Shown here piece after piece: positions 5,085-46,400 of a stretch of 64,000 nt of DNA. Each line of letters starts with the position of its first letter. Within the stretch, counting starts at the first letter, position 1. A program made the translations under genes and the position numbers. The notes under the pieces are model-generated. The model saw only the letters and a program-made list of their open reading frames with translations. It did no database searches and was not told the origin of the DNA. Origin of the DNA: Podarcis filfolensis (taxonomy: Eukaryota); the NCBI GenBank assembly GCA_964270895.1, contig OZ185435.1; one strand, 5' to 3'.

Positions 5085-7299
5085 CCTATGGAATTCTCTC
5101 CCTGGAAAAGGTATGTATGGCCTCATTTCCACCTGCCTTTAAAATGGAGACCTTAAAAACAGATATATGAAAAGCATCTCCATTTCACTCAGTTGTTGTG
5201 TTGCTGCTTTTAATTTGGTCCTTTTAATTAAACTTAAAGTATAGTTCTTTGTTTTGAAATTGTTCTAAGCTACCTTCTAGGCAGTACTGGAGAACTGCTG
5301 CTAGTCCCTGTAGACGGTTCTGAACGAGATGGATCAGGGGGTCTCAGTCACCCTGTACTGCTTCATGGAAGTAAAAGGTATATGGGGCTCGAGGAGGCCA
5401 GTTCACTTCTCAACTCCTCTTCCATTTTCGATAACACCCAAATTTCCATGGTTTCTGGCATCTGATGATCATTTGACTCCTATTTTGTGGATGAGGGTCC
5501 CTCTTTGCTTTTTTTTTTTAAAAAAAGGGTTGGTTTTGTACTTCTGCCAACATTGGGTTCCCCTTATGCAAGCTGGTGCTTCCATCTTCTGCCACCTTTG
5601 GGCCCCATTTCTTTTGGTACATGGACCCCAAACTCATTAGAAGGAATGATAAATATGTATGTAATACATTGTCTATTCAGTGTAGTACCTCTTTCTTTGT
5701 GAACTATCATTATTGTGGATTTCATCGCACACATTGAGTCTGTGCAGGCTGAATGAAGTAAGATTAAGTGTGCGGGTTCCCCCCCCCCCCAGTTATGCCT
5801 TCACTTTGGTTAGCCACTCTCACTATTGATCTTTGTTTATAATTCTGTATATTCTGGAACTGTCCTCGAATGCATTCACACTTTATGGAAAAATGACTCT
5901 TAAAATATTGGTGTCAATGTCATCAATTGCTGTTTTCTCTACATTTCTCTCTCTCCTTTTATTACTCAAGCATTTTAGATCTTGAAGGCATACACCACAC
6001 AGTGACATGGCATCGCAAAATCTGAACACATCAGCAAATGTCACCAAAGTGTCATCTCTTTGCATCACAACAGCAGTTCGTTTTTCAGAAATGACACTTG
6101 CACTGGATAAGGATTGGAACGGGTTATAGTTCCAGATCTTAATTACATCAGGCATAGGGTTTGGGAAGAGCATTCTTCCTCATGGGAAAGGGCGGGGGAG
6201 AGCAAAGCTAAATTTGGCCATTCAAAGCTCTATGCATCCTTGTTTTATCTAGAGATAATAGGATTAAGTTACGCTAGGGGACTTCCATGACCAAAAGTGC
6301 CTTGCTGCCTTCAGCAGGGGTCTAATAAGGATAGATATAATTGGGTAAATAGTGAATAAGAATGAAGAAGAAAACAGCATAAGCAGAATGGGTCTTACTA
6401 AATGATGACAAATTGGACTCCATCCAATCTCTGTAGACTTGGATAAAATACAGCACCCGATGCTGAATGGCAAGATTTAACATCTCTTTCCACTTGCCTA
6501 AATTTGATGCTGGTAAACAAGGCCCATTTTAAGACTGTTGAAATAGGGTTAAAGAAGCACACTAAATTAAATGCATAAAGAGAAAAACAGCATGAATCAC
6601 ACTTTCATTCCCTGACCCACATCCATTTGCAGAACTTAGCCTATTAACAGTTAAAACACTTATATTTACTTTTTCCTCTCAACTCTGAGGAAAACTAATT
6701 CATAGCATACTGCCCCAGAGGAATTATTAATTAGCTCCCTCATCGGCATAGATTGTGTAATTTGTAAAATCTATTTAAATAAAATTCCCTTATTTATTCC
6801 ATTTTGTGTCAGGTCTTTTTTTTTTTTTAAGTGTGATTAGTAAGAATTTATCAAACTGTGGTGTCAAAAAACCCAAAGCTGTCCTGTCCGTCTCTGATTT
6901 ATGTCTATCAGGATAGGCTTCCTAGAGAGAGAGAGAGCCATTTAATCCTTCTTATTTTCATGATATGCCCAAATGCCACTGATTAATGGTGCAAAGACCA
7001 GCTGATAAGGCGTAAGTGCCACTCCACTGGCAGAGCCCATGGTGTGCCCATGAAAATCTCCATGCATGTAGATAACCCACCAACAGTGGTGAGGTAACAG
7101 TGTTTGAGGGGTGTATTGAGGGTGGCTGATGAACCACAACATCTCTCCTCATTCCCTTAACATGCCCTCAAAAGCAGCCCCCATGCATGCCAACCTCAAT
7201 CCTGCAGTCACCTACTTGGGGGTAAGTCTTGCTGTGCTTCTGAGTAGACATGCATAGGGTTGCAATATATGTATTTAAATCGTTTATACCACAACTTTT

Positions 7300-40059: not shown

Positions 40060-40760
40060 TATATGTGTTTTGGATAATGTCCTGTAAACATGTATTAGAA
40101 ACCCAGCACTGAAAAGGCAGTGAGTACACAGTAAACAGGAGTGTGATCACAGCCTTATTTAATACATCTGCAATTTACAGCTTGGCCATAGGCCATATAA
40201 TAACATTTGGTAAAATATAATGAAATAAAATACAACATGCTGAGTGACAACAAAGAAAATTCAGTGATGATACAACACTTGCCAGTTAAACCTATTGGCT
40301 TGGATTCTGAGTTGCTATATTCCAAGAATGGAAGGCTTCTTTCCATTCATTGAGGAGATTCCAGTGCAGCAGAGATGCTAGTGGAATTGGTTGAGGGGGC
40401 ACAGGCAATTTTTGTTAATTCCTCATGCTCTTTTGAGGTCTTTCCAGAGCCAGATGTTCTAGAAGCACCCACCATCCTCTGGGACAGACTTTTGTGGGAG
40501 GCAAAGGAGGCTGTACAGGAAAAAAGGAACCAGCAAAGATTCCCTTTCTCCCCCTTCCAAGTAAGAGAACTTTCATGGGAATTTAGGATCCATGCTATTA
40601 AATCCACTCAAATTAACCCTGTCTTTCAGGCAATGAATCAGGTGATCTAAACCAATTTCTGAGTTTGGGGGAAGCAGGTCCAGTAGAAACAGAATTTCTG
40701 TAAATCAATCATAACTGATAACCCAGATAACACACTATCTAAATATTCTTCCTTAAAAGA

Positions 40761-41088
40761 AGGTAAAGAGACCCCTGACTGTTAAGTCCAGTTACGGATG
40801 ACTCTGGGGTTGTGGCGCTCATCTTGCTTTACTGGCCGAGGGAGCCGGCGTTTCTCCGCAGACAACTTCCGGATCATGTGGCCAGCATGACTAAGTCGCT
40901 TCTGATGAACCAGAGCAGCACACAGAAACGCCGTTTACCTTCCTGCTGGAGTGGTACCTATTTATCTTGCACTTGCACTTGATGTGCTTTCAAACTGCTA
41001 GGTTGGCAGGGACCGATCGCGGGGATTCGAACCACTGACCTTCTGATCGGCAAGCCCTAGGCTCTGTGGTTTAGACGACAGTGCCACC
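40761..41088 (-). mobile_element. Sauria SINE (Squam1) with internal deletion
   Basis: Reverse complement matches 4723-5084 but lacks about 25 nt after the B box. Confidence 0.9.
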
Positions 41089-41348
41089 TAGAAGATGTTA
41101 TATTACAAGAGACTAAAAATAACTTCCACATTCCTTGAGCCACCCAAGTACAAATTTTGATTTGCACAATTTTTAAATTATTTGGAACTTTGAAAGTTCT
41201 GCAAAGACCCTGCATAATGAGCAGAGGGTTGCCTCATGTAAAGAACTCTCCAAATGATGATATACTTTGAAAAAACAATAGTATTGGCAAATTGCAGGCT
41301 GCTGGATTTGAGACACATGCTAATATATCTGAAACTCCTTATATTGCT

Positions 41349-43480
41349 GACTTCCGGGTTAGCGCCATCGGTGAAATGGTGGAGTTCCTCCGGTCGGAGG
41401 AACTGGCTCCATGGAAACTGGGTCTACCCGCCACGGCGAAGGTGGGGACCCGCTAGAAATCCCAGGTGGAAGAAGCCTGGGAACGTGGGGTTCGGCAGAG
41501 CACCAGGAGCGCCTCCCCTACTCGCGGGGGACCCCTTTTTGGGACTCCAGAGTGAAGTGGGGTGATCGGCGCGGTGCTGCGAACTGACTGCTATTTTCAC
41601 GGAGGGAAGCCGCATTGCCATTGCCGGAGAGCGCTGACTTTTTCCTGTCGACAATTGGACTCTAAACAAGTACCCGTGAGTAGAAACGGAAAATTGGATC
41701 AAGAAATATCTTAATTTGGCACCGAAGCGGGAAGGTTCAAAACAGGAAGTCCGCCTTCCGCTTTTTGTAAATAGATTGAAGCAAAAATCTTGTAAGCTAA
41801 TAGCCTGGAAAGTCGCTTTACAAAGGTCGAAATTTCCTTCATTTATAACCATTAAAACCCCCTTGGAAGCAGGAGAAAAGGGGGGGAAACGAAATTGTTC
41901 AAGCCTGCTGGAGAGGGAGTAAAGGAGAATAAGTTTCCACCGTCTCAAACCTGGGAACGGGGTGTCAGAGACAGAAATTATCGGAGACGTCCATTGACTG
42001 TGAATGGAATGTTGTGACAGATAGTAAGAAAAAAGAGAAACAAATTGATTTTAATGTTGCCGGTTGCATTTTAAAGAAACAAAATATTCAAAAATTGAAA
42101 GTAACTTTCTTTTGTTGGACATGATTTAAAAAAGATGGACACAAATAGAAATTGTCTCCTCTAGAGGGAGCTTGTCAAATTGTTGCTGCAGTTCACTTGG
42201 AGATTTCACAGCTGCGAGATTAACATTGTGGGACCAGACTGTGACCTTGAATAAAAATGTGTTTGGAAGAAGTCCTGGTGCTTGCTTTTTGCAAGACAAG
42301 TGCTTTGTTGGAGCAGTTGCATGAGAAGGTGGATTTGATGAACGAGAAGTTGGATTTGATGACTGTTGTAAACAGTGAATGTGGGCAAGTAGGGAATATT
42401 GACATAGAAATCATACAGGGACCAATTCAGGAAACTGGTTCGACTGGGCAAATGCAAGGGCAGACAATAATGAAAGAAGCTACGGTGCTATCTCAAGCAA
42501 CACAAATGGAGAGACCCAAGGCCCTGCAGGAGCATAAGCTGCTGTTTTGGAAGAATGAACTTGAACTAGGCCAGAGGGAGTTGGGAGCTGAGGAGGCTCT
42601 CAACTTTGGAGAGATTTTGAAATATGCTGTTGAAGATCTTTTGGATTATATTGATGACTGTGGAGAGTGGGACTGTGGGGAATGGGCTGGTCTGATGCGG
42701 GGAGATGGACATGAGTATGGGTGGAAATTCCCCAGAGACCTACTCCCTAAGGAGAAAGGAAAGAAACTAAGAAAGAGACCAACAAAAGACAAGGAAAAGT
42801 GCAAAAATAAACAAGAAGAAAAAGATCTGCAGAAGGGGCATGGAAGAGACTTAAGAGCCTCGGATATCAGACTACCAGGTTGATGGACTAGATGGAATGG
42901 ATAGCAAGGACTGACATAACCCGAGACCAGAAAGAAGGGACGTTGGATGAAAATTGGAAGAGTCTGTAAAGAAAAATTTTTATTTTGGGAATTAGTGTAA
43001 AATTAATGAATATTAGGGAGAATGTTGGAATGAAATTGTCTGGCTTTAGCAGAAATGATATAAGGATAAATAAGTATTAAGTTTTTTTAAGTTTTAAGGT
43101 ATTTTATGGTATTTTATGGTAAGATAAGGTCAAGGTATTTTTATGGTAAGATAAGGTTAAATAAAGTAAGGCAAATTGAATAACAGAATATGGTGAAAGA
43201 TGGATAGGATATATAGAGTTAATTAATTGGTTATAAGCTAAAATATAGAAAGGATTTGCTGAAACAATGATTGAATCAGGATACAAGAAGAGGGAGGTGT
43301 GAGGAAGTCGGGGAAATAGGCAGATGAAAGATAGGATTTGGAATGACTGATTTGTTTTTAACGATTTTTATTTTTCTGTATTTTGTATCTTTTTGTCTTC
43401 TTTTTCTTTCTTTTTTTCTTTTTCATATTTTTGTATTTCCTCTGAAATTTTAATAAATATTATTAAAAAAAGAAAAAAAA
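41349..43480 (+). mobile_element. Full-length non-autonomous L1-dependent retroelement
   Basis: Perfect 18-bp TSD gaaactccttatattgct (41331-41348, 43481-43498); starts gacttccgg with a CpG-rich 5' region; AATAAA at 43452 and A tail; no EN/RT coding capacity. Confidence 0.9.
42257..42883 (+). CDS. 208-aa ORF inside the retroelement, unknown function
   Basis: ATG-initiated and uninterrupted; short heptad-like segment, acidic Trp/Gly middle, Lys-rich C-terminus; expression unproven. Confidence 0.5.
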   Translation: MCLEEVLVLAFCKTSALLEQLHEKVDLMNEKLDLMTVVNSECGQVGNIDIEIIQGPIQETGSTGQMQGQTIMKEATVLSQATQMERPKALQEHKLLFWKNELELGQRELGAEEALNFGEILKYAVEDLLDYIDDCGEWDCGEWAGLMRGDGHEYGWKFPRDLLPKEKGKKLRKRPTKDKEKCKNKQEEKDLQKGHGRDLRASDIRLPG

Positions 43481-46400
43481 GAAACTCCTTATATTGCTAA
43501 CTAATTCTTAAGCCTGATCTAACTTAATTGCATTTACTATCATAAAATCCATTGGAGCACCTGCTTGGGGCAAATCCACACCATACATTTAAAACATGTG
43601 ATTCCCGCCCCCCCAACTCCCGAAAATAATCCTGGGAACTATAGCATCCCCCCTTCCTGAGTACAATTAACAAACAACAATTCTCAGAGTTCTTTTGGAG
43701 AAGCCATGGGCTTTAAATGTAGGCTGAATGTGCTTTACCTGGCTGGTGTGTTATTAGCACTTCTATATTCTGGCCTTGTCTCATTGTCTAATATATTTCT
43801 TAAGACTGCCAGTTCTTACCTGTGCTGACCTTTATTGTACAAAATTATAGTCCTAAAATTCAGTGGTTTGGGTCCAGACATGCCCTTCTCATAGATTTGC
43901 ATCAGGGGCTCCAAGCTTAGGCCCCTGCATGAGGAACAGACATTTTCACCTGTGCTGCAGCAACCACCTTCACCACCTTCCACACTCTTCTCTAGGGTCT
44001 CTCAGCCCTCGAGAACAGGTTTTTTGGGGGGAGGGGGAACAGGCCAAAGGAGGAGTAACACAAATGAGTTTCCATCTGCCCCCATTGCCAGTTGGAGTCT
44101 CCCAAGAGTGGAATTCTGCTTATGGGAAATCTGGATCTAACTCATTACTTTTAGCATCTCTCTCTCTCTCTCTGTCTCTCTCTCTCTCTCTGTGTGTGTG
44201 TGTTTGCACTCTTTATGTATATTTCATCTCCAAAGTAGGTCCTATTATGATATAAATATGGCTTTCTGCAATATTTTCATTAGATTTCTCAGCAATATTT
44301 ACCATTTCCAAAGTTAAATTTTCCAAAGATAAAGGAAAAATGGGGACTGTGGGGGTTGCTTCTGCTTTTTTTTTTTAAATTCCAGAGGAGTACAGCACCC
44401 TAAATGTCACAAACCACTTTCCTGTTTCATGGCTACCCACTCTCAGATGTGATACGAGCCCTCCTCAATAGTTGCTGCAGGCAAGGTCTCATCACATTAA
44501 GAGGATGAACTACTACAAGACTCCATTTCACTCTGCTGCACTGGAAGCAAAGCAGTTTATTTGATGGGACAGTTGTGAACCTCAAACCAATTTCCAATTT
44601 GTGTCTTCCTGCTCTTCCCCTCCATTCAAGACTGGCCGCATGTCTTTTATTATTAAATTAGGTCGGTATGGCATTACTGCAGACTGCTAGACCTTGGATA
44701 GGATCCAAATTGAGCTGGTCAGTGAAACTCCCTCTTCTGTTTGTTTGTTTGTTTGTTTGTTCCTTCTTTCCTCTTAGAAGGTCTTTCAAAAATCCTCTCC
44801 CTATTCTGAAGGGGAAAGGAGGTCTCCACATGCCTACTCTGGATTCGGCAAACATGCAGATAATAAAAAGGAAATGGAATGGCAAAAACGGTGACTTCTG
44901 CCCACTGCCAAACATCCCCTTCCACTGCATGATAATTCCAACTCCAAAATTTCCTTTAAAAATACATGAACATATCACACTGTGTCGTGTTGGTTGCTGT
45001 GCATTAACTGAGAGAAAAATGAATTCCATTCACACATTATAAAGCTTACTTAACAGGTTATTGGAGAAATCATTGGCTGTCAGCCTGACCTACTTGCCAG
45101 GGTTGTTGTGAGCACAATCTGGGGTAACTCCATAGTAATTTTTATTATATAGTATCAGTGTACATGGGTGTGTGTGATAACGTTATGCCCCAAACTCTTT
45201 GCAATGCTTAATTTCAATGTGCTGGGGAAGTGGGGGGAAGAGAGGAGTCAAGGTTACAAACAGTGATCAGATGCAATTGCAGTTATGTAGGCTTTGTTTC
45301 TGTTGGCATTGAGTCTTGATGGAGCTGTTCAGTTTTATTTCCCCAGCTACTTCCATCTTCCAGAATACTAGTACTACACCTATCCCTCAAAGCTGAAATA
45401 AAGATTTCACAACATCCAAATGATACATGCATGGCTTTCACAATCATGCATTGCTCCATACACAGAAATTAAAAATGCTAAACTCTTATCAGTTATAAAT
45501 GCAGACCTGAATTGTTACTGCACATCACACGGGCAACTTGCTTAATTGTATAGAATCTTGTGCGACAAGTCACCGCTTACATTTTCAGAACCACTCTTTC
45601 AGCTCTGTTGCTTGTTCAGGATATTTACCTGCATCTTTGAGCATCTTAAGGTATTCTGGAAGATGTGTAAATAAGCCATACATCATAAAAAGACACCACC
45701 GTCTCTGCTGCTCCTCATTCTAAGGAAATCAAACCCTGGGTAAGCACCCTGAACCTCCAGAATATCACACCGCTTGGAGATTAGGGTGGCATGCATCAAT
45801 GCTTTATCACAAACATCACTTGAGTGTTCTATTCATGATGATTTGCTGTGACTGGTGCCCTGTGTGCCTGCTCATTCCCCCATCCAATGATCTCTCCAAT
45901 AACCAGGCCAACACCAAGGCCCCTGCTACCCCTTCTTTTATCTTAAAACGGACAGAGGAGCACTTCAGACAGAGGACTGTTCTATGACAGCCCTTCAAAT
46001 AGAGGGCTATCCTCTGTAAAGTAGAACATCTGGCCACTCCACTTTTGATTCATGTCAGAAGTCTATGAGTTTCTGGTTCATGAAACCACACACCTGACAA
46101 GCATCTCTATAGACACTATGAAATGTATCCCTGAGAGAAGATGCTGAGTCAGAGTGAAATGGTTTCCTTCAACAATATTAAATATCAGAAGAGTAGTCCC
46201 GCTTTTTTTCTTTGCTTGAAGTTCCCTGCATCCTCTCTTAAAAGTGCTTTATCTGAGATAAAAAATGAAATAAACACTAAATATGAACACTGAAATAGTT
46301 ATACTTAAATATCCCAAATACTGAAATAAATACTAAATAAAAATTATTCATCTGGTCTTTCCTACTTTTCTATTTTTAAAACGTTCCAACAATAGGCCTA

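Follow-up and report, generated by a model that had tools for sequence, protein, structure and literature searches.

A HAL1-like LINE-1 derivative of Podarcis filfolensis with a reduced ORF1 and a conserved C-terminal peptide

The stretch of Podarcis filfolensis DNA analysed here (64,000 nucleotides of contig OZ185435.1, assembly GCA_964270895.1; hereafter the window) carries on its plus strand a complete retroelement flanked by a target site duplication (TSD) and derived from LINE-1 (L1), whose features are as follows.

41331-41348, plus strand: 5' copy of the TSD, 18 bp, GAAACTCCTTATATTGCT
41349-43480, plus strand: full element, 2,132 bp, TSD-flanked
41349-42256, plus strand: L1-derived 5'UTR and leader, starting GACTTCCGG, with a putative internal promoter
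42257-42883, plus strand: 208-aa ORF, a reduced ORF1, with ATG start; intact in 23 of 30 DNA-selected copies
42257-42385, plus strand: N-terminal helix (aa 1-43), under purifying selection; its homologue is the beginning of the coiled coil in the parent ORF1 (MSSEEALVLALSKINESLEQL)
42613-42614, plus strand: site of a 42-codon in-frame RRM deletion (beta3-alpha2-beta4), present in all lineages and falling between FRLGR and IFKDIPK of the parent
42614-42826, plus strand: eroded ORF1 CTD, WKFPRDLLPKEKGKKLRKR as against WEFPQGLSFSFKGRKIKIR in the parent
42851-42883, plus strand: terminal peptide LRASDIRLPG and stop, in frame from (S/P)RASDRRSPD of the parent ORF1
42879-42969, plus strand: ORF2 remnant covering ~30 terminal codons of L1 ORF2, interrupted by a TAG; ORF1 deletion junction at ~42878/42879
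42970-43480, plus strand: L1-derived 3'UTR, with AATAAA at 43452 and an A-rich tail
43481-43498, plus strand: 3' copy of the TSD, 18 bp, GAAACTCCTTATATTGCT

The first-pass annotation had described a retroelement with L1-like ends lacking endonuclease and reverse transcriptase (RT), and this outline holds in its details. The TSD is exact and its sequence occurs exactly twice in the 64-kb window; the 5' region is indeed CpG-rich (55% GC in the first 440 nt, with a CpG observed/expected ratio of 0.90 against 0.34 in the 2-kb left flank) and contains the small hairpins reported there (cctccggtcggagg at 41387; cccagg/cctggg at 41461/41476); the AATAAA signal precedes an A-rich tail; and neither endonuclease nor RT is found in the element. 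Moreover, the stop-containing frame at 42877-42969, likened there to the last residues of squamate L1 ORF2, translates as described and shares homology with the end of ORF2 in resident L1s. Folding of the first 150 nt gives an energy of -68.8 kcal/mol (z -2.9 relative to 60 shuffles). The 208-aa ORF, whose stop and the beginning of the ORF2 remnant overlap, was overlooked in the annotation, which had pictured a parasite keeping the L1 promoter and 3' end around a replaced interior; a model of LINE ends without a protein gives way to an ORF of 189-225 aa that is conserved in all lineages of the family. An antisense frame, also of 208 aa (41424-42050), was considered and rejected, being neither conserved among copies nor assigned to any Pfam family. 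Immediately to the left of the insertion, at ~40740-41090, lies a short repeat of very high copy number, which resembles a Sauria SINE.

A DNA search of the element's own genome (1.5 Gb) returned 6,409 candidates, and 38 of the 40 that were scored, the window copy included, match over nearly the full length at 93-100% identity, in agreement with the earlier suggestion of a young, full-length, multi-copy RT-less family bearing an L1 promoter region and 3' end. Exact flanking repeats occur at all of the 30 loci fetched, with a length of at least 11 nt in 27 of them and of 8-10 nt in the other three. A pattern covering the last nine codons of the ORF plus its stop has 2,677 exact matches in the genome, against 0 for the reversed control; a pattern for the equivalent spot in the parent ORF1 has 73, a ratio that is only rough because the two patterns differ in tightness. 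Protein searches with four queries gave at least 150 matches each, mostly without stops, and most of the 60 loci fetched from them share a common plan of 2.0-2.2 kb, of which the leader takes up ~0.8-1.0 kb and the 3' part 0.4-0.7 kb, on either side of an ORF of 189-225 aa. The subfamilies are young, with ORFs 96-99% identical within each. Four lineages (A, B, C and D) can be distinguished, with D nested within A and containing near-identical young copies. Lineages C and D were recovered with a profile that included the conserved C-terminal tail, an ascertainment bias lowered only by four copies met by chance in fetched flanks, with queries lacking the tail; all four carry it, which makes a small control. 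At 42881-42891, lineages A and B have an ATG that shares letters with the ORF stop (as TGATG or TAATG), after which come a single codon and TAG; this arrangement comes from the ORF2 end by descent and is not maintained in lineage D.

The named homologues of the protein come from Podarcis lilfordi, where they are listed as hypothetical proteins (71, 59 and 33% identity), and a profile search of 1.84 billion representatives found only seven proteins, four of them family members and three with L1 ORF1 sequence. The element is one copy of an abundant, recently active HAL1-like clade of 2.0-2.2 kb, and several 'hypothetical proteins' of Podarcis are thereby explained as transposon ORFs.

To trace the origin of this clade, 46 L1 loci were fetched for comparison. 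A profile of 59 element proteins matches the ORF1s of one related L1 group in six cases out of six (E 4e-19 to 1e-16); 12 of 13 other L1 ORF1s lie at E 0.012 or worse, the thirteenth being absent from the matches listed. The closest parent family has an ORF1 starting MADGKEK (loci L123-L136) and belongs to clade 1, for which a lizard 5' consensus of GACTTCCGGTGN8ATGGCG is given in a vertebrate L1 review (PMC5381506). Both ends of the element align with L1s of the same genome, namely with the 5'UTR, ORF2 end and 3'UTR of the MADGKEK family. The alignment runs through the leader (72% identity between element nt 1-904 and the parent 5'UTR/leader), through parts of the ORF in frame and, from 42879, through the last ORF2 codons and the 3'UTR; the shared blocks, which include the ORF1 start helix, the CTD and RASDRRSPD, are 62-81% identical in DNA. 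In contrast to the element, the parent is ~6.5 kb long and autonomous in design, and its version of the tail motif is internal and variable.

These comparisons show an origin from one L1 family by three deletions, which took from ORF1 its first ~47 residues, 42 within the RRM and ~53 at its end, after which the ORF joins the ORF2 end. The 18 representative proteins compared with the parent agree throughout: all begin with the Met that precedes the coiled coil, share the 42-aa RRM gap and end at one point, behind the RASD motif. In a tree, a 100/99 branch separates these 18 element proteins from 15 parent ORF1s, at a place where long branches meet; the shared junctions also point to a single origin. 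The interior, previously thought to have been replaced, is instead collinear with the parent 5'UTR and ORF1 and encodes an internally deleted ORF1 protein that is under selection. Splicing was rejected as the source of the two large deletions, whose junctions lack GT..AG ends, and an initial idea that the tail came from an out-of-frame ORF2 end was rejected after the closer parent family had been found.

The model of the parent ORF1 (mean pLDDT 68) matches human ORF1p (2YKP, E 2e-10) and comprises a disordered stretch (1-48), a coiled coil (50-172), an RRM (175-265), a CTD (269-330) and a disordered tail. Given this position of the RRM, the 42-aa gap removes beta3, alpha2 and most of beta4. 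Further losses differ among lineages: A and D lack another part of the RRM, the window element's own lineage missing a further stretch of its first half, and part of the basic CTD is missing from B and C, most of the basic CTD residues being gone in some lineages. The AlphaFold model of the element protein has a mean pLDDT of 40 and was not used for a fold search; after the first helix the protein is predicted to be largely disordered. No Pfam family scored above the cut-off for the element protein and four homologues, and the ESM Atlas gave no usable match to the element protein. A PF02994 search of the genome was without a match, its controls being likewise silent.

HAL1 (half-L1) of mammals, reportedly described by Smit in 1999 and by Bao and Jurka in 2010, encodes an ORF1p that is said in the primary HAL1 paper to evolve faster than L1 ORF1p. 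In the accounts cited here, HAL1 is a non-autonomous L1 derivative that encodes only ORF1p and arose several times in mammals (PMC5753468, PMC13756887, PMC4859970, PMC8535693, PMC4161310), and its coding capacity was kept for 29-44 Myr in the guinea pig (PMC3627910). The lizard element resembles it in its L1 5'UTR and 3' end, its single long-kept, selected ORF homologous to ORF1, the absence of ORF2 coding capacity, and its amplification with A tails and TSDs (PMC5753468, PMC3627910, PMC8535693). It departs from HAL1 in that ORF1p is not complete: the protein amounts to about half an ORF1p, with the 42-aa RRM deletion, truncation at both termini and an eroded CTD. Therefore, it is classed as HAL1-like and not as a member of HAL1, which the descriptions cited place in mammals; the lizard elements have an independent origin from a lizard L1. 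The first-pass annotation had seen in it the best candidate for an undescribed system, a suggestion that does not survive, since a HAL1-like element is of a known kind. What is unusual in comparison with HAL1 is the loss of half the RRM together with the conserved C-terminal peptide, on whose ten residues selection is concentrated.

HAL1, HeT-A (Jockey clade) and Ag-Sponge (CR1 clade) have been grouped by Kojima as ORF1-present bipartite LINEs, and such elements, which have only an ORF1-type protein, are thought to multimerise with helper proteins (PMC5786205). HeT-A and Ag-Sponge belong to other LINE clades than the element described here. The Gag protein of HeT-A keeps its nucleic-acid-binding knuckles. 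A literature search over titles and the starts of abstracts, with subscription papers outside its scope, revealed neither a squamate HAL1 nor an arrest peptide in a non-LTR element, and in the text of the vertebrate L1 review (PMC5381506) the terms 'HAL1' and 'non-autonomous' do not occur. A Repbase or Dfam entry for the family may exist, which would leave the protein anatomy uncovered; novelty is judged here from the literature alone. A HAL1-like radiation of thousands of copies is now placed in a lizard genome.

Selection on the ORF was examined in a set of 77 proteins, made up of 59 intact ORFs of loci L001-L070, from which L058 was taken out for its frameshifted tail, and of 19 from L103-L122, the frameshifted L122 being left out; L044-L047 are four copies of one duplicated passenger. 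The tree of these proteins has a length of 9.9 substitutions per site, and protein identity between lineages is 20-48%. As an alternative, the element could be an isolated case of an L1 with an internal deletion, or a decaying passenger with an ORF left open by chance. Collinearity with the parent L1 speaks for such a reading, and the interior does align with L1; the deletion, however, is not one-off, having founded a large clade. Copy number and frame conservation refute this alternative, to which we assign a negligible probability: there are thousands of copies with individual TSDs, in four lineages with shared junctions, whose frames have been kept over ~10 substitutions per site of tree. 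Moreover, the 30 DNA-selected copies show one distinct indel in the 627-nt ORF against 64 in the 1,485 nt outside it, of which 21 fall in one T-rich tract.

Conservation is unevenly distributed along the protein. For the whole ORF, dN/dS is 0.65 (58 sequences), and bootstrap intervals include 1 in two of four comparisons. Residues 1-35 have a dN/dS of 0.13-0.63 in 13 of 13 comparisons, with an identity of only 29-50% between lineages in the N-terminal helix, and residues 36-190 drift at ~0.4-1.4. The tail follows the consensus LRASD-[ILV]-R-x-P-[G/D]-stop and varies mainly at silent sites. Its identity between lineages is 0.81, as against 0.13-0.58 in the other 20 alignment windows; among the parents, the alignment window holding the same motif has the lowest identity of all 21 (0.69). 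The last ten columns accumulated 2.0 amino-acid changes per column against a mean of 6.9, with none at R, A, D and R in the 77 proteins, along with 5.3 extra silent changes per column. The pN/pS of the tail is 0.13-0.34 between lineages, and its dN/dS is 0.01-0.41 in 11 of 13 comparisons; the two outliers, both with very low dS, are 1.34 in B1-B3 (dS 0.08) and 0.64 within A1. These data show that constraint at the level of the protein is centred on the terminal peptide, with a weaker share falling on the N-terminal helix. The clade can be read as a natural deletion series, in which two constrained pieces, the helix and a ten-residue tail at the stop, survive after about ten substitutions per site of protein evolution.

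That the drift of residues 36-190 has nevertheless preserved the frame and a length of 189-225 aa might mean that translation alone matters, through mRNA stability, escape from decay or a place on ribosomes near nascent ORF2p, the tail being kept as an RNA signal. We regard this as quite improbable: of six regions, the tail has the highest rate of silent change (5.3 per column) and the lowest rate of replacement, the N-terminal helix is constrained too, and no stable RNA fold was found around the stop in seven copies (z -1.5 to +1.3).

Since the element has TSDs and A tails and no ORF2, and intact 1,247-aa ORF2 frames of a related L1 family exist in the genome, it is very probably transcribed from its L1 promoter and copied by TPRT through L1 ORF2p acting in trans. 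It is also likely, to a somewhat lesser degree, that the ORF is translated from the very RNA that gets copied. Selection presumably keeps a transposon ORF when the ORF helps its own RNA; as the product here retains no complete RNA-binding fold, the ribosome offers the simplest link between protein and RNA. A tentative model can be built on this, in which the nascent chain serves as a tether by a combination of pausing at termination and docking to a helper; as a whole, it has in our opinion somewhat less than an even chance of being correct. At the stop codon, the conserved ten-residue end would delay release of the chain, the paused chain would hold the protein on its own mRNA, so that it could act only in cis, and the N-terminal helix would join the coiled coil of helper ORF1p, the element RNA being thereby hitched to the L1 machinery.

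The tail displays residue-specific, codon-independent conservation within tunnel length of the stop, as is expected of an arrest peptide, and it resembles none of the arrest peptides with which it was compared. There are precedents for the parts of the model: XBP1u joins an arrest peptide to an upstream targeting segment, and TnaC arrests at a stop (PMC10501990). With its HR2 segment, XBP1u has the same layout as the element protein, that is, an N-terminal docking segment, a spacer and a C-terminal peptide acting on its own mRNA (PMC10501990); it has no sequence relation to the element, and pausing is shown for XBP1u but only proposed here. As to docking, a complex predicted from the N-terminal 62 aa and two parent coiled coils scored 0.45 against 0.00 for the best control, a value in the weak range, obtained without the alignments made in this analysis and with a relative of the true partner, which may show likeness only. 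The runs agree in at least 90% of contacts, with a partner pLDDT of at least 61. Of 78 solved pairs, 51 attained the mark used, as did 2 of 108 mismatched ones, and the passes at 0.60 or less comprise only 5 of the 78 solved pairs and all four passing mismatches. The prediction thus weakly suggests that the helix may dock into helper ORF1p.

Several observations count against the tether. The whole-ORF dN/dS is only 0.65, the tail dN/dS rises to 1.34 and 0.64 in its two outliers, the N-terminal helix is only 29-50% identical between lineages, and most tails also fit a C-degron. ORF1 proteins that are truncated yet have a coiled coil can act on L1 in trans as inhibitors (PMC5605252), which speaks against a helping role, and the seven upstream ATGs leave no evident route to initiation at the ORF; the parent L1 leader has several upstream ATGs too. 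The leader also contains a donor-like GTGAGT (41677-41682) and an acceptor-like CTAG (42162-42165), conserved in derivatives and parents, and a hypothetical intron between them would take out five of the seven upstream ATGs. The intervening stretch is retained in the full-length copies examined, and no joint of these two sites is among the joints listed. Contigs of runs guessed to be RNA cover the element and are no evidence on expression either way; in one sample, which may be the assembly's own source, contigs span both junctions without a differing letter, and no empty-site joint is listed.

The inhibitory effect of truncated ORF1p through its coiled coil (PMC5605252) is also the starting point of another explanation, according to which the tail is a self-destruct C-degron (terminal R-x-x-G) that removes a coiled-coil fragment that would otherwise poison helper ORF1p, the ORF being needed for its translation or for a brief action. 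In 69 of the 77 proteins the C-terminus is R-x-P-G, which fits a known C-degron, R-x-x-G within 0-3 residues of the C-terminus, and most of the protein is predicted to lack a fold (mean pLDDT 40); in the account cited, APPBP2 binds R-x-x-G at or near the C-terminus and KLHDC2/3/10 take Gly-ending degrons (PMC10614623). Nevertheless, R-[ST]-P-D is the ending of the other eight proteins, which are those of lineage D, where near-identical young copies occur, together with two copies of lineage A; the upstream L-R-A-S-D, which a degron motif does not require, is as fixed as R-x-x-G itself; and the sparing of a helper would presumably benefit all copies alike, so that selection per lineage would be weak. 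This explanation is in our view unlikely.

We consider it similarly unlikely that the released protein uses its tail as a short motif for binding helper ORF1p, ORF2p or a host factor and serves as a small adaptor in L1 RNP condensates, as has been proposed for the HAL1 and HeT-A proteins. In favour of this, the source of the motif is the parent's disordered ORF1 tail, in which a similar one occurs twice, and two derivative-specific hydrophobic changes, S/P to L at -10 and R to I/L/V at -5, are nearly fixed in the four lineages. However, a released protein that has no RRM and, in B and C, no longer has the basic CTD stretch would show no evident means of preferring its own RNA, and the motif stands directly before the stop in 77 of 77 proteins, a position that an internal motif would not need.

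Returning to the nascent-chain tether, its most specific form, in which the terminal peptide stalls the ribosome and the helix inserts into helper ORF1p trimers, so that the RNA overcomes the cis preference of L1 without an RNA-binding domain, is doubtful, less probable than the tether in general. If true, it would be the protein-based equivalent of the docking on ribosomes that is attributed to Alu. The clade as such bears on two open questions, namely how non-autonomous elements cope with the cis preference of L1 and why ORF1-only elements keep their ORF.

Some of the loci fetched show the family in other contexts. At L044-L047 (contigs C16, C3, C9 and C7), a 5'-truncated family copy lies within a dispersed repeat of >7.5 kb found on four chromosomes; the host repeat is 99.2-99.5% identical among them, and the family copy is a passenger in another young mobile element, of unassigned type. 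At L036:1592-5053, a family copy is inserted in a different element of ~1.3 kb, starting CGACTTCCTGTTTCCGG...AAAATGGCGG, which ends with AATAAA and an A tail, has a 16-bp TSD, is unmatched in the other fetched loci and is possibly a second RT-less L1 derivative. In L123, from oriented position 6161 to ~8100, a frameshifted family copy is nested in a parent L1, and its ORF is visibly nearer to the parent ORF1 than the ORFs of other copies are. Finally, a large share of the top L1 hits falls on the 43-Mb contig C19, an L1 richness that might be that of a repeat-rich sex chromosome.
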